Source: an uncultured Bacillota bacterium (GTDB taxonomy: Bacteria; Bacillota; Clostridia; Christensenellales; UBA1242). From it: a stretch of 64,000 nucleotides of DNA. Made by a program: the position numbers and the translations under genes. Location of the stretch: the NCBI GenBank assembly GCA_946499835.1, contig CAMMTJ010000005.1, positions 930 through 64,929 on the forward strand, given 5' to 3'. Position 1 is the stretch's first letter, and every line of letters starts with the position of its first letter. The notes under the pieces were generated by a model. The model searched no databases. It was not told where the DNA came from and worked only from the letters and a program-made list of their open reading frames with translations. This document shows, piece after piece, positions 20,080-32,753 of the stretch.

Positions 20080-20261
20080 ATATATCAAGTGGACGCTTTT
20101 TATTATATCTATTTGTGAGAGCAAAGTCAATGATTTTTTGCAAGAAAAAAGTGCTTTTCTTTGTTTTGTCTATTATTAAAAGGCAAAAAAGGCAACAATT
20201 GACACAAAGTTGCTTGAAAAAAATCAAGCGCTATGATAAAATATATCAAAGAGAGGGTGCT

Positions 20262-21335
20262 ATGGCAGGATATGAAAAAAACACACAAACCTTAAACGAG
20301 GTGAATGAAAGAAAAAGGAAAAGGGCTTCAAATCAAAGAGAAGCAAATATCAAATATTTGGTTGAACAAGTTGGTTTTTCAGAAGAACTTGCAAAAAAGA
20401 TGGTGGACAAGGAAAATCTTGCTCCGCTGAGCAATGAAGAACTTGCATCTCGTATGGAGTTTTTCAGAGGACTTGGCATGACTAATTCTGAAATTGTGAA
20501 AATGTCAAAAAAATTTTCCAAGATTTTTTCTTACACAGTGCCACATATGAAGGAAGTGTGTGAGAACTTAAAAAATGGTCTTGGCGCAGATGAAAAACAA
20601 ATTTTTGATACCGTCACATCTTTTCCAAGAATTTTTAGTTATAGCCTAAAAAATATCCAAGAAAAAAAGAAGTTTGTCAAGGAAAACTTGTGTCCAGCAG
20701 GCGTTTCAAGCAAAGAATTGATGGCCAAAAATTTGCAAATTCTTTGCAGGAGCGAGAAAGATCTTTTGGATAGAAAAGCATTTTTGAAAGAAACTTTTGG
20801 ACTCAATGAAAATGAATGCAGAGACGTTATTTTCAATAATACTTACATTTTCGGCATGGCAAAAGAAAGTTTGTCAAAAAAGGCAGATGCCATTGAACAG
20901 GTTTTTGGAAGCAAGAAATATGTCCTCAATGACAATTTCATTTTGACAGCATCGCCTGAAAAATTGAAGTTCAACTATATGATTTTGTCACAATATAGTG
21001 CTGACCCATCATCCTTTATGAAGAGAAGATTTTATTTGCACAGGCCAAGTGTGTTATATGCAAGAGCAGAAGGACTGAAAAGTGCGAACAGGCAAGTGAG
21101 AACATCTTTGATTTTACAAACAAACAAATATTTTGAAGAAAAAACAGGGTTAAACACGCAAAGCCTGATGAAAGATTTCCCATTTGACAACGATGTTGCA
21201 CAAGAAATTATTTTGAATTATCATGAAAAATTCCCAAAAGTTCCAATAACTTTGGATGAAGAAGAAATCAAAGTTATTGTGGCGGGTGGACATAGTGCAA
21301 GAGCGAAAAAAGAAGTTGAAATGGGGGAGGTGTGA
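20262..21335 (+). CDS. mTERF-like helical repeat protein, large subunit of locus 1
   Basis: ~35-aa repeats such as LGMTNSEIVKMSKKFSKIFSY and LGADEKQIFDTVTSFPRIFSYS; C-terminus aligns with the 30776-31969 protein; start chosen from the RBS. Confidence 0.7.
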   Translation: MAGYEKNTQTLNEVNERKRKRASNQREANIKYLVEQVGFSEELAKKMVDKENLAPLSNEELASRMEFFRGLGMTNSEIVKMSKKFSKIFSYTVPHMKEVCENLKNGLGADEKQIFDTVTSFPRIFSYSLKNIQEKKKFVKENLCPAGVSSKELMAKNLQILCRSEKDLLDRKAFLKETFGLNENECRDVIFNNTYIFGMAKESLSKKADAIEQVFGSKKYVLNDNFILTASPEKLKFNYMILSQYSADPSSFMKRRFYLHRPSVLYARAEGLKSANRQVRTSLILQTNKYFEEKTGLNTQSLMKDFPFDNDVAQEIILNYHEKFPKVPITLDEEEIKVIVAGGHSARAKKEVEMGEV

Positions 21336-21622
21336 TTATGCCAAAGGTATTTGAAGAGTATGGTCTTAGCAAATATGATTTTGAAACCATAAAAAGTATT
21401 TTTCCATCCGTTTCTGTGCTTGATGAAGAGAGAATGAGAAAGAATATCGAACTTGTTGTTCATTTTGGCTATCCAGTTGAGGACATTTCAATTTTCATGG
21501 TGACAAACCCATCTTTTCTCAGCTATGATCCACAAAGACTTAAAAAGAAACTGGAAATACTTACTGATGGAAAAACTTTCAATCTTGAAAACTTGCTCAA
21601 ATGCGATCCATTTATCATTTAA
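21332..21622 (+). CDS. Small mTERF-like partner protein, locus 1
   Basis: Overlaps the upstream stop; FGYPVED...NPSFL...LKCDPFII; paralog of 30481-30774. Confidence 0.7.
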   Translation: MIMPKVFEEYGLSKYDFETIKSIFPSVSVLDEERMRKNIELVVHFGYPVEDISIFMVTNPSFLSYDPQRLKKKLEILTDGKTFNLENLLKCDPFII

Positions 21623-27008: not shown

Positions 27009-28472
27009 TTAATAAACTCCTTCCACACGATAAACATAAATGTCTGCATCTTGATAATACACACTGCTCATCGTCACAGAGCCAGAAGATCTTGACAAGA
27101 TAATTGTGTAAAAGACAGCAAAACGATTTTGAGCCTCTGTGGCTCTCAAATGGACAAGATAGCAATTCAGTCCAGTTGCGTCAGTGGACAGAATGACACC
27201 ATCGGTGATTGCGCCATGTAAAGGCATTTCTGTGTAGGCGTAATAGTTTTTTACGCAAGCATAAACACGAAGTTTTTTGTATTTTGCATAATCAATGACA
27301 AGCGTTTTTGATCCAGTCATTCCATCTGGGCAGTTGTTGTTGTGATCTGGATCATCTTTGTCATAGAGCAGTTCAACAGTTTCGCCACCGCCACCACTTC
27401 CGCCACCGCCAAGAGAGTCGATTTCATTCTCACAAGCGGTGACACGTTGGGCAATTGATGTCAAACTGGCACGCGTGCTTTCAAGAGTGGTTGAAAAAGA
27501 AGAAACATCATCTTCCATATTGCCGACAGTCGTCTCGCAGGTGTTGACCTTGTTTTCACAAGTCGTCATTCTTTGAGAGACTGAGGTGAGTGAGGCTCTG
27601 GTGCTTTCCAGCGTAGTGTCCAAAGTGTCAACTTCACTTGACAGACTGCTCAAATCTCCGTCCAGTGCAGAAACTTCGCTTTCAAGAGAGTCTATATCTG
27701 TTTGCATGGCAGATATGCTTGATGAGTGAGAAGAAGTTGTTGACTGCAAAGAGTCAATCTCACCTTCGGCTGTGGTCACCCTTTGAGCAACAGATGTGAG
27801 AGAAGATCTTGTGCTTTCAAGCGTGCTGTCAAGATCGTTCACTTGCTCGGAGATTGAAGATATCGAGCCTTGGGCGCTTTCGACTTGATCAGATAACCCT
27901 GAAAGAGATGTTTGCAAAGCCGTTATTGACGTGTCATGCCCTTGCAGAGATGTTTGAATTTCGTCAATCTCACCTTCGGCTGTTGTAACTCGTTGGGCTA
28001 TCGCAGTCAATGATGATCTTGTGTTTTCAAGCGTTGTGGAAAGTGTGCCAATGCTTGTGGTGTTGGCAGAGATCGCTTCTTCTGCATCTTCTAGGTCACT
28101 TTCAAGAGTGGATATAGAAGAAGAAAGGGTGGATAGTGATTGAGAAAGGGTTGAGAGAGAAGAAGATAGATCAGTTATTTGGCTTGTATGATTGCTAGTA
28201 GTATTAGTAAGAGTGTCAAGATCCTCCTGCATACTGCTGTCCGCTAGTTCAAGATTTGTCAGCCTGCTTTTGATATCCTTGATTGTCTGCTGAGAAGAGA
28301 GCAGTTCATCCAAAAAAGAGAGCACTGCCGATTTGATAGCCTCAGTCGTTGTGCCTTGTGAAATAAGAGCGGTAAGTTCTTCTTTAAGCGCTGGCAAACT
28401 CTTTTTGACAAGAGCCCAAAGTTCTTTTTCAAGTTGTTCAACGCTGTTTGATAACATTTGAAATTTGTCCAT
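27009..28472 (-). CDS. Long coiled-coil fibre-like protein with Gly linker and C-terminal beta-rich head
   Basis: Heptad S/T-rich stalk with TLE(S/N)TR.SLT...QR repeated four times; GGGGSGGGG linker. Confidence 0.7.
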   Translation of the reverse strand: MDKFQMLSNSVEQLEKELWALVKKSLPALKEELTALISQGTTTEAIKSAVLSFLDELLSSQQTIKDIKSRLTNLELADSSMQEDLDTLTNTTSNHTSQITDLSSSLSTLSQSLSTLSSSISTLESDLEDAEEAISANTTSIGTLSTTLENTRSSLTAIAQRVTTAEGEIDEIQTSLQGHDTSITALQTSLSGLSDQVESAQGSISSISEQVNDLDSTLESTRSSLTSVAQRVTTAEGEIDSLQSTTSSHSSSISAMQTDIDSLESEVSALDGDLSSLSSEVDTLDTTLESTRASLTSVSQRMTTCENKVNTCETTVGNMEDDVSSFSTTLESTRASLTSIAQRVTACENEIDSLGGGGSGGGGETVELLYDKDDPDHNNNCPDGMTGSKTLVIDYAKYKKLRVYACVKNYYAYTEMPLHGAITDGVILSTDATGLNCYLVHLRATEAQNRFAVFYTIILSRSSGSVTMSSVYYQDADIYVYRVEGVY

Positions 28473-28534
28473 AAAAAAACTCCTTTGCAAGCATTTTACA
28501 AAGGAGATTTGTCTTCTTCAAGAAAGACTGCCAA

Positions 28535-29143: not shown

Positions 29144-29199
29144 AACTCAATTATTGCCAAAACAAAGGTGTTTGTCAAGTTAATTTCTTAGAAAATCTA

Positions 29200-29316
29200 T
29201 GTGGATAACTCTCCATTTTATGTGGATAACTGCCCATAAAAATGTGGATAACTGTGCCTATTATGTGGATAACTCGACAAAAAAATGTGGATAACTTGAC
29301 CCAAAATTGTGGAAAA
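29200..29316. promoter_or_regulatory. DnaA-box array (five perfect, one with a single mismatch)
   Basis: TGTGGATAA at 29200, 29221, 29243, 29264 and 29286; TGTGGAAAA at 29308. Confidence 0.88.
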
Positions 29317-29384
29317 GTGAGAAAGAAAAGTATAACTATAAATGGCAAGAAGCCCCTCTTTTCAATCCCTTCTTTGCAAGACAA

Positions 29385-29808: not shown

Positions 29809-30297
29809 ATGAAAGAATACGAACACAGTTTTAAAGTAAAGTCAATACTTCCATATTTAGAATATTGCAAACAAAATGGATATACAGAGTTTGATGCTGT
29901 TACTCAAAATAGAGTGGTTTATGAAAATAGCAATAGCGACCACATTATCGCAAGAATTACTACTGAAACGGTTGGAGAAGGTAAAGAAAGAATAGTTTTT
30001 GATTGCAAAAATGTAGGTAGCAAACGAAAAGATTTGAATATTTCTAGTGAGTCAATTCCAATGGAGTTAACAGAAGAGACCAAAAAGATTGTTTTATCTA
30101 TGTTAGAGGTTCTTGAATTTTATGTCGCAGCAGATAATTTAAGAACAAGATATATATTCAAAAAGGAAGGTGTAACTTTTGAGATAGATGACTATATAAG
30201 ACCACAAACTCAAGTAGTTGCGATTGAAGGCAAAGAAGAGGCTGTAGAAAAAGTATATAGCGATATTCTATCTAAGATAAACAACATTATAAAATAA
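29809..30297 (+). CDS. CYTH-domain protein (triphosphate tunnel metalloenzyme-like)
   Basis: N-terminal EYE motif, RTRYIF, FEIDDY, VAIEG. Confidence 0.7.
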   Translation: MKEYEHSFKVKSILPYLEYCKQNGYTEFDAVTQNRVVYENSNSDHIIARITTETVGEGKERIVFDCKNVGSKRKDLNISSESIPMELTEETKKIVLSMLEVLEFYVAADNLRTRYIFKKEGVTFEIDDYIRPQTQVVAIEGKEEAVEKVYSDILSKINNIIK

Positions 30298-30302
30298 AAA
30301 TC

Positions 30303-30410
30303 ATGAAGATAGGAATAGATATAGATGATACAATTACAGATACAGGTTTATATTTTATAAAATTTGTAGCAGAATATTTCAAATTAGATAAAAACTATTT
30401 GAAAAAATAA
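30303..30410 (+). pseudogene. Truncated NT5C-like HAD nucleotidase
   Basis: MKIGIDIDDTITDT start, then a stop after 35 aa just before the right repeat. Confidence 0.7.
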
Positions 30411-30435
30411 TAAATTTTATAATATCTTTATAAAT

Positions 30436-30464
30436 ACAAAAAAGCATATCGGTCGATATGCTTT
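30436..30464. repeat. 29-bp direct repeat (terminator hairpin), right copy
   Basis: Identical to 29385-29413; positioned to terminate mTERF-like locus 2. Confidence 0.85.
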
Positions 30465-30480
30465 TGTTTTTTATTTAATT

Positions 30481-30774
30481 TCAAATTGCAAAAGGATTGT
30501 TTTTTAGATATTCTTCAATATCAATCTTTTGCAGGATGAGTTTGTCAAGTTCATTCATCAACACATTTTCGTCCATTGTCATAACATTAGGGTTTTGACA
30601 GAAAAGGTCTGGCAAATCTTCTTTTGGAAAGCCATAACAACTTAAAACTCGCATCACACCTTTAACTTCTTTCAGCGTGGTAACATCAAGGGTTGGAGCA
30701 ATATTTTTCATATCTTCAATCTCATTTTTAGTAAATTTCATTTGCAGTAAAAAATTTTCCAAATCTTTCTGCAT
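30481..30774 (-). CDS. Small mTERF-like partner protein, locus 2
   Basis: AGGAG RBS; YGFPKED...NPNVM...LKNNPFAI; paralog of 21332-21622. Confidence 0.75.
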   Translation of the reverse strand: MQKDLENFLLQMKFTKNEIEDMKNIAPTLDVTTLKEVKGVMRVLSCYGFPKEDLPDLFCQNPNVMTMDENVLMNELDKLILQKIDIEEYLKNNPFAI

Positions 30775-30775
30775 A

Positions 30776-31969
30776 TCATTCTCCTCTTTCTGCACTTTTT
30801 TGCAAATCTTCCAATTTAACTTCAAGTTTTTTATCGTCATTTATTTCTGTGAGTTTGTCATATTCGCTATTCACAAATTCCACAACTTCTTTTGTGATTG
30901 GAAACTTTTCCATAAGTTTAATGCTCTCAACTCCATATTTTTTTTGAAAGTTTTTTTCACCAAGAAATACATCGTCAGGCCTCATTTTATCAGTTTGGTT
31001 CATTTGAGAATATCTTGCCCAAAATTTTCTTTCGCTTGTCATGCTCCAGAATTTTTTATCAAGGAATTTTTTGTTGCCAAAAGCAACATATAAAAGCATA
31101 TATTTGAAAATAAAACCTTTGGAAGGTGTTGCCAACATTGAAGGATTTTTAATTATATCATCTTTGCTTAACTTAATCTTATCAAAAATTTCCTTCTTGT
31201 TTTTAAGCCCTTCATTAGCATAACATAAAAGAGAAGGTGAAATTTTAAGCATTTTGTTGAACTCATCTTGTGTCAAGCCAAAAGTCTCTTTATAAAATTT
31301 AGTCTTTTGTAACACACTTTCATCATTCAAATTTAGAATGGAAGGCAAAGATTTGAATATTTTGCTGAATTCATCTTGTGATAAGTCAAAAGTCTCTTTA
31401 TAAAACTTAGCCTTTTCCAAAACATTTTCACTATTGAGACCCAAAAGGGTAGGAGAGGATTTAATCATTTTGGAAATTTGGTCTTGTGTTAAGTTGAAAG
31501 TGTCTTTATAAAAGTTAACTTTTTCCAAAACATTTTTCTTTTTCAAAAATAAAAGAGAAGGTTGAGATTTTATCATTTTGTTTGCTTCTTCTCGTGTTAA
31601 GTTAAAAGTTCCTTGATAAAAGTCAATTTTTTCTTTCACGCTTTTATTTTTCAAACATAAAAGAGTAGGATAAGTTTTAATCGTTTTGTTAAATTCGCTT
31701 TGTGTTAGGCCAAAAGTTTCTTGATAAAACTTAGCCTTTTCCAAAACACTTTTATTACTATAACTTAAAATGGCAGGCAAGGTCTTAACCATTTTGATAA
31801 AGTCTCTTTGTGTTAAGTTAAATGTTGGTTTATAAAAGTCAGTTTTTTTCGAAATTTTTTCTTTTTTGAGATATAAAAGCGATGGAAGAGATGCTTCTTT
31901 CCTTTTGATATCATCATCTGTCCACTCAAAATCTTGTTTCAAAATCTCAGTAATACTTGTTATCCCCAT
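30776..31969 (-). CDS. mTERF-like tandem repeat protein, large subunit of locus 2
   Basis: Six well-conserved 36-aa repeats; mTERF-like C-terminal pattern SERKFWARY...EKNFQKKY; GGAGG RBS. Confidence 0.8.
   Translation of the reverse strand: MGITSITEILKQDFEWTDDDIKRKEASLPSLLYLKKEKISKKTDFYKPTFNLTQRDFIKMVKTLPAILSYSNKSVLEKAKFYQETFGLTQSEFNKTIKTYPTLLCLKNKSVKEKIDFYQGTFNLTREEANKMIKSQPSLLFLKKKNVLEKVNFYKDTFNLTQDQISKMIKSSPTLLGLNSENVLEKAKFYKETFDLSQDEFSKIFKSLPSILNLNDESVLQKTKFYKETFGLTQDEFNKMLKISPSLLCYANEGLKNKKEIFDKIKLSKDDIIKNPSMLATPSKGFIFKYMLLYVAFGNKKFLDKKFWSMTSERKFWARYSQMNQTDKMRPDDVFLGEKNFQKKYGVESIKLMEKFPITKEVVEFVNSEYDKLTEINDDKKLEVKLEDLQKSAERGE
31196..31843 (-). repeat. Six 108-bp coding tandem repeats
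   Basis: Consensus xxFYKxTFxLTQxEFxKMIKxxPxLLxLxxxSVLEK. Confidence 0.9.
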
Positions 31970-32063
31970 TTCAACCTCCATTCGAATTTTATCATAATAT
32001 GACAAAATTGTCAATATGCAAGTTATCGGTGATATATATCAAAATTGAATAATATATTACCAT

Positions 32064-32753
32064 ATGCGATTTATTGTAATAAAAAAGAAAATGATTGTTT
32101 GTTGTTTGGCGATTTTGCTTATACTTTCTGTTGTTCTTATTTTTTTTGCAGTGCGTGGGGTTGAGACGAATATGCCAAAACCTGAACACATTATTGTCAT
32201 TGATGCCGGCCATGGCGGGCGTGATGGTGGCACGGTGGGCAGCGGCGGAGCGATAGAAAGTCAGCTTAATCTCGACTATGCCATCACCTTAAAACAAATG
32301 TGTGAAAGTTTTGGTTTTGGTGTGGTTATGACAAGAGAAAATATGAATGGACTTTATGATGAAAACGCTCCAAACAAAAAGCGTAGCGAGATGGAAAAAA
32401 GAAAAAAGATTATTGATGAAAGTGATGCAGACATTGTGATAAGTTTGCATATGAACGGCTTTCCTCTTCCATCAGCAGAAGGGGCGCAGGTTTTTTACGG
32501 GAAAGGCAATGAGGCTGGGCAGGCACTGGCAGAATCGGTCACAACCTCACTTTCACGAGATTTTGAAAGTGCAAGAGATTATTGCACAGTTGGTGATTAC
32601 TTTGTTTTGAACTGCACCGATAAGGCTGGTGTTTTGGTTGAGTGTGGTTTTTTAAGCAATCCAAGCGAAGAAAAATTGTTGCAAAGCAGAGAATATCGGC
32701 AAAAGTTTTGTTATAGTTTGCTTTACGGCATTATCACATATTTTCAAATGTAG
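32064..32753 (+). CDS. cwlD: N-acetylmuramoyl-L-alanine amidase (CwlD-like)
   Basis: VIDAGHGGRDGG, ESQLNL, ISLHMN, LVECGFLSNPSE. Confidence 0.8.
   Translation: MRFIVIKKKMIVCCLAILLILSVVLIFFAVRGVETNMPKPEHIIVIDAGHGGRDGGTVGSGGAIESQLNLDYAITLKQMCESFGFGVVMTRENMNGLYDENAPNKKRSEMEKRKKIIDESDADIVISLHMNGFPLPSAEGAQVFYGKGNEAGQALAESVTTSLSRDFESARDYCTVGDYFVLNCTDKAGVLVECGFLSNPSEEKLLQSREYRQKFCYSLLYGIITYFQM

Follow-up and report, generated by a model that had tools for sequence, protein, structure and literature searches.

The window analysed here, a 64,000-nt stretch of bacterial DNA, carries on its minus strand a gene (30776..31969) for a 397-aa protein whose six tandem repeats probably, at odds that we put near 60%, form a DNA-reading solenoid and make it a pTERF-type protein, that is, a bacterial tandem-repeat protein of the mTERF fold. 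The six three-helix units would stack, together with the N-terminal cap and the first motifs of the C-terminal part, into one superhelix of about the size of human MTERF1, and its basic inner surface would, as in that protein, wrap double-stranded DNA along the major groove. By the same analogy, Pro21 of each unit would cap helix 2 at the DNA-facing edge, while the invariant lysines K15, K18 and K34 may touch the backbone and unit positions 19, 22, 25 and 26 are the best candidates for contacting bases. The protein may act as a sequence-specific regulator or a transcriptional roadblock, with units duplicated, lost and exchanged between species so that length and specificity would change; both DNA binding by this protein and its cellular role we infer by analogy.

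The plant and animal literature still calls the mTERF family absent from bacteria (PMC12977773, 2026, and PMC4005652), yet Hu and colleagues reported sequence-specific DNA-binding tandem versions, the pTERFs (Nucleic Acids Res 2024;52:10464, PMC11417379). Since that 2024 paper both described the class and suggested that it might be reprogrammable, the present protein is one more example, not a new kind. What it adds is a clean architecture of 44 + n x 36 + 137 residues (n from 2 to 9), whole-unit mosaicism among genes that are otherwise nearly identical, a few candidate specificity positions picked by reference to MTERF1 readout residues, and a conserved small acidic partner gene, which goes unmentioned in the main text of PMC11417379, where the terms 'operon', 'adjacent gene' and 'genomic context' do not occur.

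A bacterial mTERF-fold protein built of exact 36-residue units

The gene, an open reading frame with a Pfam mTERF match, encodes 397 aa plus a stop (pI 9.3; net charge +16), and its start methionine is an invariant column of the family alignment. A 44-aa N-terminal cap (31838..31969), identical in length across all relatives, leads into an array of six mTERF-type units of 36 aa, or 108 bp, each (31190..31837; aa 45-260), with units 1 to 6 at 31730-31837, 31622-31729, 31514-31621, 31406-31513, 31298-31405 and 31190-31297. An all-helical C-terminal domain of 137 aa follows (30779..31189; KNPSML...WSMTSERKFWARY...), which is conserved in the wider family and whose first part can still be superposed on MTERF1; all of these features lie on the minus strand. 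Unit spacing is exactly 36 aa, and Tandem Repeats Finder upholds the 108-bp period (5.7 copies, 71% matches, score 465, at 31222-31837) that a preliminary description of this DNA had placed at 31196..31843, which is the same array offset by 6 nt. The six nine-residue segments listed there as flanking the proline (TLPAILSYS, TYPTLLCLK, SQPSLLFLK, SSPTLLGLN, SLPSILNLN and ISPSLLCYA) are all found in the translation. The near-constant scaffold described around them is not: only 10 of 36 positions (1, 2, 5, 6, 8, 15, 18, 21, 24 and 34) are invariant in all six units, 26 vary, and mean pairwise identity is 52% for amino acids (62-75% for nucleotides). Among the invariant residues are Pro21, kept in 6/6 units, and the lysines at positions 15, 18 and 34; the net charge of the array, calculated from sequence, is +12.

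The protein is an mTERF-fold protein. Its score with Pfam PF02536 (mTERF) is 129.9 bits, where the cut-off is 23.1 (E 1.3e-37), a PF02536 search of its own genome recovers it too (81.1 and 59.7 bits), and a sequence search of the PDB returns MTERF1, MTERF3 and mS93. AF2, given an alignment of 80 sequences, yields a model with a mean pLDDT of 95.7 and a pTM of 0.89, superseding a first run from nine sequences (pLDDT 58; Foldseek E 3e-3 or worse), and DSSP divides each unit of this model into the three helices of an mTERF motif, roughly 15, 10 and 5 residues long. The top 17 Foldseek matches are without exception mTERF entries (best E 1.1e-7, to 3m66), and the model superposes on solved mTERF structures: MTERF1-DNA complexes align with a VIA Z of 20.3 over 313/324 residues (rmsd 7.2 A; model residues 4-332 against MTERF1 73-396), and MTERF3 with a Z of 18.3 and an rmsd of 4.1 A. 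As the plant and animal literature describes them, mTERFs are eukaryotic, nucleus-encoded and organelle-targeted, whereas the present gene belongs to a bacterial genome of 995,667 bp and its product has no N-terminal extension.

The next family by VIA is TALE-like (Z <=7.8). TALE and TALE-like proteins (dHax3, PthXo1, BurrH and the STAR proteins treated in PMC11417379) resemble the present protein in their tandem units of 33-36 aa, DNA-tracking superhelix, variable repeat number and scope for recombination between units. The structural match is weak, however (Z 5.5-7.8; rmsd 12-15 A), and a TALE unit of 33-35 aa combines two helices with an RVD loop of two residues in an otherwise near-identical sequence, whereas here there are three helices per unit and variation over 26/36 positions. 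PPR proteins are likewise built of a two-helix motif, of 35 aa and recognized by profile, unlike these three-helix units; neither PPR nor TALE families are among the nine Pfam matches at E up to 1. NCBIfam yields nothing near any of its cut-offs for this protein. We also rejected an HTH domain (Pfam HTH_19 at aa 164-191, 26.8 bits, below the cut-off of 30.2), which reflects the units' LTQ-x-E/Q motif, a known defence family (one sub-significant PADLOC match, PDC-S05, E 1.4e-4, with no single stretch passing) and a known phage family (weak PHROGs matches of unknown function).

The pTERF class, relatives and array turnover

The pTERFs are prokaryotic mTERF-like tandem-repeat DNA binders from gut Clostridia MAGs, for which sequence-specific binding of double-stranded DNA is reported from SELEX, EMSA and BLI (PMC11417379). 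The target given for pTERF1 is a 10-bp ACTNNNAGTC, partly palindromic with seven specified bases and bound with a Kd of 1.87 nM; pTERF2, which differs from pTERF1 in repeat arrangement, has another motif, and 46 homologs of the two are listed. This published evidence for DNA binding and differing specificities concerns the pTERF class, which the present protein fits by architecture and origin when compared with the published description of pTERF1 and pTERF2. Both come from bacterial MAGs of gut Clostridia or Bacillota (relatives of our protein are from uncultured Clostridia or Christensenella MAGs), both carry mTERF-like three-helix units strictly in tandem (3-11 in the published pTERFs; six here and 2-9 among relatives), and AF2 predicts for both an ordered solenoid resembling MTERF1. 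They differ in that the Pro-8 and heptad features of mTERFs are reported as not seen in pTERF1, whereas Pro21 is present in 6/6 units here and Pfam mTERF matches at E ~1e-37; because of this proline our protein may belong to a different bacterial branch. Within the window ACTNNNAGTC is not enriched (two matches against 4.7 expected), which is uninformative since the array differs from that of pTERF1.

The layout is 44 + n x 36 + 137 residues, with n ranging from 2 to 9 among relatives. Near-identical genes differ by whole units: relatives L016 and L017 have N-caps that are 100% identical and C-tails that are 98.8% identical, but identity falls to 88% in units 5-6. Such unit-level mosaicism fits diversification by recombination. 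Recent expansion or homogenization, which had been read from high similarity between units, applies to relatives, where adjacent units are 98% (L017) or 96% (L015) identical, but not to the six-unit array studied here, the most diverged of those compared. DNA of the locus occurs in metagenome runs of chicken gut that belong to 10 studies and may include the source sample; contigs from four runs contain no joint inside the array that would mark a strain-level variant in repeat number, which does not show that variants are absent, because contigs drop rare ones.

Alternatively, the protein may be RNA-binding or ribosome-associated, like MTERF3, MTERF4, mS93 or plant mTERF4/9, and would then serve rRNA maturation or RNA processing in place of reading DNA sequence. 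The lowest rmsd, 4.1 A, is that of MTERF3 (3M66; Z 18.3); the Tetrahymena mitoribosomal protein mS93 (6Z1P chain BY) reaches Z 16.7, and MTERF4 reaches Z 11.2 in 4FP9 and Z 10-11 in intermediates of mitoribosome assembly, with PDB sequence matches to these proteins at E 1e-4 to 2.5e-5. Plant mTERFs are described in intron splicing and ribosome assembly (PMC4005652, PMC7826268), and predicted pTERF targets are said to be tied to RNA-metabolism GO terms (PMC11417379). MTERF3, MTERF4 and mS93 act on ribosomes or RNA or via protein partners, and none has a regular tandem array. Against such a role, the only bacterial tandem-repeat mTERF-like proteins tested are reported to bind double-stranded DNA sequence-specifically with nanomolar affinity (PMC11417379), and the best-covered structural match is to DNA-bound MTERF1. 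The gene occurs in 29 of 154 genomes from the genus and in 2 of 399 sampled across the class; so patchy a distribution, taken with the rapid array turnover, is unlike a core ribosome-biogenesis factor. We consider an RNA or ribosomal role unlikely.

Variable positions and candidate base readout

Conserved prolines of MTERF1 track the major groove, and R162, R202, R251, R350 and R387 are given as its direct readout residues (PMC4705650). In our alignment, whose register was checked with two landmarks, P277 of the GPG loop and the alanines that the RFY mutant 3mvb carries at chain positions 109, 190 and 235, R162 aligns at Pro-2 (unit position 19), R202, F243 and R350 at Pro+1 (position 22), F322 at Pro+4 (position 25; a 'contact' only by the existence of a substitution structure, per its PDB title) and R251 at Pro+9 (position 30). 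Likeness to MTERF1 (3MVA, 3N6S and the substitution series 5CKY/5CRK/5CO0/5CRJ) extends from the whole-length fold and the three-helix motif, with its proline capping helix 2, to the base-reading residues, which fall on Pro-flank positions here. The two differ in that identity is 15-16%, MTERF1 motifs are degenerate and of unequal length where ours are exact, MTERF1 reads bases with arginines where the same positions here hold small or neutral residues (A/T/S/N/G/C/Y/L) and no arginine, and MTERF1 is eukaryotic and organellar where ours is bacterial and cytoplasmic. Because flank positions 19, 22 and 25 align with R162, R202/F243/R350 and F322, respectively, a per-unit code is plausible from sequence, and we infer from the analogy that 19, 22, 25 and 26 are the candidate reading positions.

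Variability is moderately concentrated at the Pro flank (defined as unit positions 19, 20 and 22-27). The flank averages 0.345 against 0.193 elsewhere in 13 close arrays (random-subset p 0.031) and 0.619 against 0.503 in 16 distant arrays (p 0.058), a modest enrichment of 1.2-1.8-fold over the rest of the unit at nominal p 0.03-0.07; positions 19, 22, 25 and 30 together exceed random four-position sets (p 0.027 close, 0.017 in the 16 distant arrays). All of these comparisons were made post hoc and their p values are nominal. The flank is therefore more variable, as had been proposed, but variation is not confined to it. The highest entropies in 37 units of 10 proteins are at positions 11 (3.05 bits), 4 (2.84), 7 (2.33) and 22 (2.16), and averaging within the 13 close arrays ranks the top ten as 35, 4, 25, 11, 22, 36, 26, 7, 19 and 20. 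Positions 3, 4, 7, 11, 33, 35 and 36, away from the flank, are equally variable, and the variation is spread over three surface patches.

Tree-based counts give a global dN/dS of 0.40 and no position significantly above 1, the highest being 35 (1.71, P 0.10) and then 22 (1.20, P 0.21). Pairwise pN/pS above 1 at positions 10, 22, 23, 25 and 26 was not robust, resting on low local pS, and at 22, 23, 25 and 26 vanishes once the mean pS is applied.

A strict modular code, in which two or three Pro-adjacent positions of every unit read a set number of bases so that targets could be predicted and rebuilt as for TALE or PPR proteins, would suit units that are regular, exchangeable, spaced by exactly 36 aa and present in 2-9 copies per protein. 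Positions 22, 25 and 26, homologous to MTERF1 readout residues, carry 30 distinct triplets in 73 units of the 13 close arrays, with T-S-L, T-G-L and A-S-Y recurring, and the authors of PMC11417379 themselves raise reprogrammability. MTERF1, by contrast, has no regular code and reads at Pro-2, +1, +4 and +9 in different motifs, and it superposes on a stretch that contains all six units and the caps. It covers roughly 20 bp, which would give about 2-3 bp per motif, not one. The seven specified bases of the partly palindromic pTERF1 motif (PMC11417379) also offer no obvious fit of one unit per base, and 26/36 varying positions include no sharp hypervariable pair. We regard a strict code as rather unlikely. 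Of the modular recognition code first suggested for this array, the alignment of the flank with base-reading residues of MTERF1 survives, and the sharp TALE- or PPR-like form does not. The further suggestion of a reprogrammable, recombination-diversified binder agrees with a nucleic-acid-binding fold, with 2-9 units and with whole-unit differences, but is not new, being already in print (PMC11417379). If a per-unit code exists, such arrays would be compact design scaffolds; if not, they would be ordinary lineage-specific regulators.

The small acidic partner gene and flanking signals

The large gene is the first of a two-gene operon, in which the second gene (30481..30774, minus strand; 97 aa plus stop) encodes a small, acidic (pI 4.55), mTERF-like protein that matches Pfam mTERF at E 6e-4, under the cut-off. 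Its ATG starts 1 nt past the large-gene stop codon, and an ortholog lies immediately downstream of the large gene in 6/6 genome-contig loci; a metagenome scan with the small protein found three loci. This partner gene and a second paralogous pair set the present case apart from the main-text account of the pTERFs. A predicted complex of the two proteins scored 0.05 (mark 0.32), which we count neither for nor against binding. Fusion of the small to the large protein was considered and rejected: the small-protein profile matches large proteins along the repeats only, as generic mTERF similarity, with no C-terminal fusion.

Such a co-transcribed acidic mTERF-like protein is a candidate ligand, and might suggest that the array is a protein-binding scaffold whose variable patches record changing partners or neutral drift and hold no nucleic-acid code. 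MTERF4 acts through its partner NSUN4, according to the titles of 4fp9 and 4fzv, and the variable positions here are approximately neutral (site dN/dS 0.7-1.7, none significant) and lie on several helix faces. Yet the array carries a strong positive charge and invariant Lys at 15, 18 and 34, fold and class precedent (PMC11417379) favour nucleic acid, and the enrichment of variability at counterparts of MTERF1 readout residues recurs in the independent distant set (p 0.017). A scaffold is accordingly improbable. A little likelier, though still improbable, is a bolder version of DNA reading in which Pro+1, +4 and +5 (22, 25, 26, perhaps also 19 and 20) would determine which bases each unit contacts, arrays would be retargeted in nature as units are duplicated, lost and exchanged (as in L014, L016 and L017), and the 97-aa protein would serve as partner, cap or anti-factor controlling DNA binding. 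If true, the array would be a programmable scaffold for DNA binding, bacterial in origin, small and wholly helical, and provided with its own regulator.

A ribosome-binding site, GGAGG (31975..31979, minus strand), lies 5 nt before the ATG of the large gene, and upstream of it is a promoter-like site, TTGACA-17 nt-TAAAAT with a TG before the -10 hexamer (31986..32014, minus strand), which, as a consensus match only, has 11/12 matches and is the best of 19 sites in 30250-32120. An apparent palindrome upstream of the large gene, TGACAAAATTGTCA, which contains the minus-strand -35 hexamer TTGACA and, on the plus strand, a TTGTCA, was not taken as an operator. Contigs from RNA libraries of one study do not cover the DNA beyond 31967 upstream or 30570 downstream, which is not evidence of transcript ends. 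A terminator-like hairpin of 11 pairs (30440..30465), with T-runs on both strands, lies 16 nt past the small-gene stop.

An mTERF-like protein with six exact repeat units

The 108-bp repeats lie inside a minus-strand open reading frame. Tandem Repeats Finder gives them a score of 465 over 31222-31837, with 5.7 copies and 71% matches, and translation gives six units at exact 36-aa spacing (aa 45-260, window 31190-31837 (-)). The period, the exact spacing and the presence in the translation of all six nine-residue stretches quoted in the preliminary description establish that the array is real; it is the same array as reported there, with coordinates that were 6 nt off. The gene (30776-31969 (-)) likely starts at the ATG at 31969, which has GGAGG 5 nt upstream, and encodes 397 aa up to a stop codon at 30776-30778; M1 is an invariant column in the homolog alignment.

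The protein matches Pfam mTERF (PF02536) at E 1.3e-37 (129.9 bits, cut-off 23.1), and among PDB sequences it matches, below E 1e-3, solely human MTERF1 and MTERF3 and mS93, an mTERF protein of the mitoribosome. With 9 aligned sequences AF2 gave a poor first model (pLDDT 58); with 80, taken from a representative search that found 864 clusters at E <= 1e-3 (278 at <= 1e-10, 54 at <= 1e-30), it gave a model with mean pLDDT 95.7 and pTM 0.89, in which each unit has three helices of ~15, ~10 and ~5 residues. Entries of the mTERF family fill the top 17 Foldseek matches (best 3m66, E 1.1e-7), and VIA-align places the model on DNA-bound MTERF1 with Z 20.3 (313/324 residues, rmsd 7.2 Å, model 4-324/332 against chain 73-396), on MTERF3 with Z 18.3 (rmsd 4.1 Å) and on mS93 with Z 16.7, whereas the next family, TALE-like, reaches at best Z 7.8 (rmsd 12-15 Å). 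These matches predict a single mTERF superhelix of about MTERF1 size, made up of the N-cap, all six units and the first of the C-terminal motifs. We favour, at a probability of roughly 0.6, a sequence-specific dsDNA-binding regulator or roadblock of the pTERF type, whose basic solenoid would wind around DNA along the major groove in the manner of MTERF1, with residues flanking the unit proline as candidate base readers and arrays reshaped from species to species by exchange of units. A role with RNA or the ribosome, the setting of mS93, which scores below MTERF1 in this comparison, is unlikely.

Separately, a sub-threshold Pfam HTH_19 match at 31400-31480 (aa 164-191; 26.8 bits, cut-off 30.2) arises from the repeated motif L-T-Q-x-E/Q-[FI]-x-K-M; the second helix of every unit superficially resembles an XRE-type HTH helix, probably by convergence.

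Unit turnover and variability within the unit

Close homologs are scarce (12 matches, nine of them close, in a search of 5.8 billion proteins), and the nine share one plan of a 44-aa N-cap, n exact 36-aa units and a 133-137-aa C-tail, with one metagenome homolog (P0008) lacking part of the N-cap. Compared across relatives, as had been suggested, repeat number ranges from 2 to 9: the window's protein has n = 6, the nine metagenome homologs 2 to 5, and six species-representative genomes (uncultured Clostridia or Christensenella MAGs) 9, 7, 8, 8, 8 and 3. Three related loci (L014, L016, L017) share N-caps at 100% nucleotide identity and units 1-4 at 95-100%; between L016 and L017 the C-tails are 98.8% identical, and units 5-6 reach only 88% best matches mutually. 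Two neighbouring units of L017 are 98% identical, and three units of a further locus, L015, stand at 96%. Near-identical genes that differ by whole units point to unit-level duplication and exchange. The window's own units share 62-75% nucleotide and 52% protein identity, the latter being the lowest within-array value of ten proteins compared, and this array is old, with no fresh expansion; the recent expansion or homogenization initially proposed is seen in relatives, not here.

We number the unit F1 Y2 ... P21 ... K34. Its scaffold had been described as near constant; in the window's array only 10 of the 36 positions keep the same residue in all six units. Across 37 units from 10 proteins, entropy is highest at positions 11, 4, 7, 22, 25, 20, 35, 36, 3 and 29, while mean within-array variability peaks at positions 35, 4, 25, 11, 22, 36, 26, 7, 19 and 20 in 13 close arrays and at positions 20, 35, 36, 22, 19, 25, 26, 10, 33 and 14 in 16 distant arrays; P21 and K34 rank near the bottom for variability in both sets. 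Variation thus falls into about three patches: the Pro flank (positions 19, 20 and 22-27 around P21), the exposed stripe of helix 1 (33, 35, 36, 3, 4, 7) and the beginning of helix 2 (10, 11, 14). Without its proline, the flank is 1.2-1.8 times as variable as the rest of the unit and ranks first (close set) and second (distant set) among 36 circular shifts, with nominal, post hoc random-subset p values of 0.031 and 0.058, a modest enrichment.

With changes counted on a tree of 43 distinct units (from 7 genes, recombination within units being ignored), global dN/dS is 0.40 and site values are 1.71 at position 35, 1.20 at 22, 1.11 at 4, 1.01 at 11, 0.98 at 25, 0.88 at 20 and 0.77 at 26. On this tree no position lies significantly above neutrality (P >= 0.10), and the label 'hypervariable' is therefore too strong; the variable positions evolve at an approximately neutral rate on a constrained scaffold. 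Such rates would suit a protein scaffold with drifting surfaces, which we consider very unlikely for a protein whose highest VIA-align score is to DNA-bound MTERF1. Pairwise pN/pS exceeds 1 at positions 10, 22, 23, 25 and 26 alone, which we discounted as a selection signal because it is due to low local pS; when the mean pS (0.545) is used instead, position 4 alone reaches 1 (1.02).

The Pro flank and the pTERF class

The published account of MTERF1 (PMC4705650) has its conserved prolines capping the central helix and following the major groove, and names R162, R202, R251, R350 and R387 as direct-readout residues. We transferred MTERF1 contacts by HMMER alignment, pairing the unit Pro with the MTERF1 motif prolines, such that facing is homology-inferred; the numbering offset was verified by P277, placed by that account in the 'GPG loop' (PMC4705650), and by the alanines of the RFY triple mutant 3mvb. 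R162 falls at Pro-2 (unit position 19), R202, F243 and R350 at Pro+1 (22), F322, taken as a contact solely since a structure of its substitution exists, at Pro+4 (25), and R251 at Pro+9 (30); the mapping leaves out R387. Within arrays, these four positions vary more than randomly drawn sets of four (p 0.027 close, 0.017 distant; post hoc). The variable flank thus aligns with readout residues and on this alignment would face the groove rather than solvent or the core, which makes it the best candidate reading surface. MTERF1 has arginines at readout positions, whereas the residues at the candidate positions here are small and neutral (A/T/S/N/V at 22, G/S/C/N at 25, Y/L at 26). A strict unit-by-unit code, the stronger form of the initial reading, could draw on the same alignment; we regard it as unlikely. 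For the modular, recombination-diversified binder itself, unit exchange in relatives speaks in favour and the near-neutral sites speak against; the original observation is confirmed in part, and its interpretation is supported in part.

Hu et al. (Nucleic Acids Res 2024; PMC11417379) describe pTERFs as prokaryotic mTERF-like tandem-repeat proteins, from MAGs mostly of Bacillota, with 3-11 units per family member. There, pTERF1, which stems from a Clostridia MAG of the ruminant gut, binds ACTNNNAGTC at a Kd of 1.87 nM (SELEX, EMSA, BLI, GFP reporter), pTERF2 selects a different motif, and the authors take this to suggest 'potential reprogrammability'. For the class, the idea of a reprogrammable binder has therefore been published already, and the window's protein is probably a further member of this known, young class; statements in other papers hold mTERF to be absent from bacteria (PMC12977773, PMC4005652). 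According to Hu et al. (PMC11417379), the Pro-8 feature is not seen in pTERF1, whereas the window's protein keeps its Pro and may therefore be a sister branch.

Operon, neighbourhood and distribution

The large gene is the first of a compact operon, in the order promoter-like TTGACA-17-TAAAAT (11/12 consensus matches), RBS, large gene, a 97-aa gene (30481-30774 (-)) whose ATG lies 1 nt past the large gene's stop, and a terminator-like hairpin 16 nt past the small gene. The small protein is acidic (pI 4.55 versus 9.3 for the large protein) and weakly mTERF-like by Pfam. Its ortholog stands directly behind the large gene in 6/6 genome_contigs loci and, among 14 further distinct loci of the genus, also in L025, L029, L030 and L036; no fused large-small form was seen in the homolog loci searched. 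A second, more degenerate pair (20115-21335 (+), 21332-21622 (+)) comprises a 406-aa protein (own-genome Pfam match 46.2 bits) and a small one of 94-96 aa that overlaps it and is homologous to the 97-aa partner, with 27% identity and common YGYP..D...NP and DPF.I motifs; the genome thus carries at least two large-small mTERF-type operons. The own-genome search also returned a weak mTERF match in a 957-aa frame on another contig (C3). Here and in relatives, the large gene has a divergent amidase_3 gene upstream, and the locus is therefore chromosomal and syntenic, and not obviously mobile.

Some members of the genus carry two large pTERF-type genes in tandem, of 499 and 504-514 aa (L028, G113:C5) and of 481 and 480 aa (L038, G142:C14), with no small partner detectable in the stretch examined near either pair. 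In the window, 4-5 direct copies of ATGTGGATAAC (29198-29320, period 21-22 bp, TRF scores 87-140) sit among short ORFs only, ~1.2 kb from the operon; the unit includes the reverse complement of a perfect DnaA box, TTATCCACA, and these copies could form a DnaA-binding cluster, of oriC type or another. In a 493-aa ORF (27009-28490 (-)), the C-terminal domain is preceded by about four long repeats rich in Ser/Thr (LESTR.SLT..AQRVTT.E.EID.LQ...) and by a Gly-rich linker.

The distribution of the large gene is narrow and patchy: homologs occur in 29/154 genomes of the genus, including 23 of the 103 high-quality ones, and in 2/399 genomes of a class-wide sample, one being the window's own and the other holding a copy with two stop codons. 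This copy (L040, G511:C3:434692-435417), the sole match outside the genus in that sample, is broken by two TAA stops and may be decaying. The window's DNA is present in chicken-gut metagenome runs of 10 studies, and in two metatranscriptome runs of one study, where DNA carry-over is possible, contigs match at 100%, span the array and bridge the large-small junction. At 31115-31177, where the C-terminal domain begins after the last unit, the chicken-gut DNA runs X15 and X16 each contain a second contig of 123 nt with the same 8 differences within 63 nt, a strain or paralog variant co-existing with the reference form.
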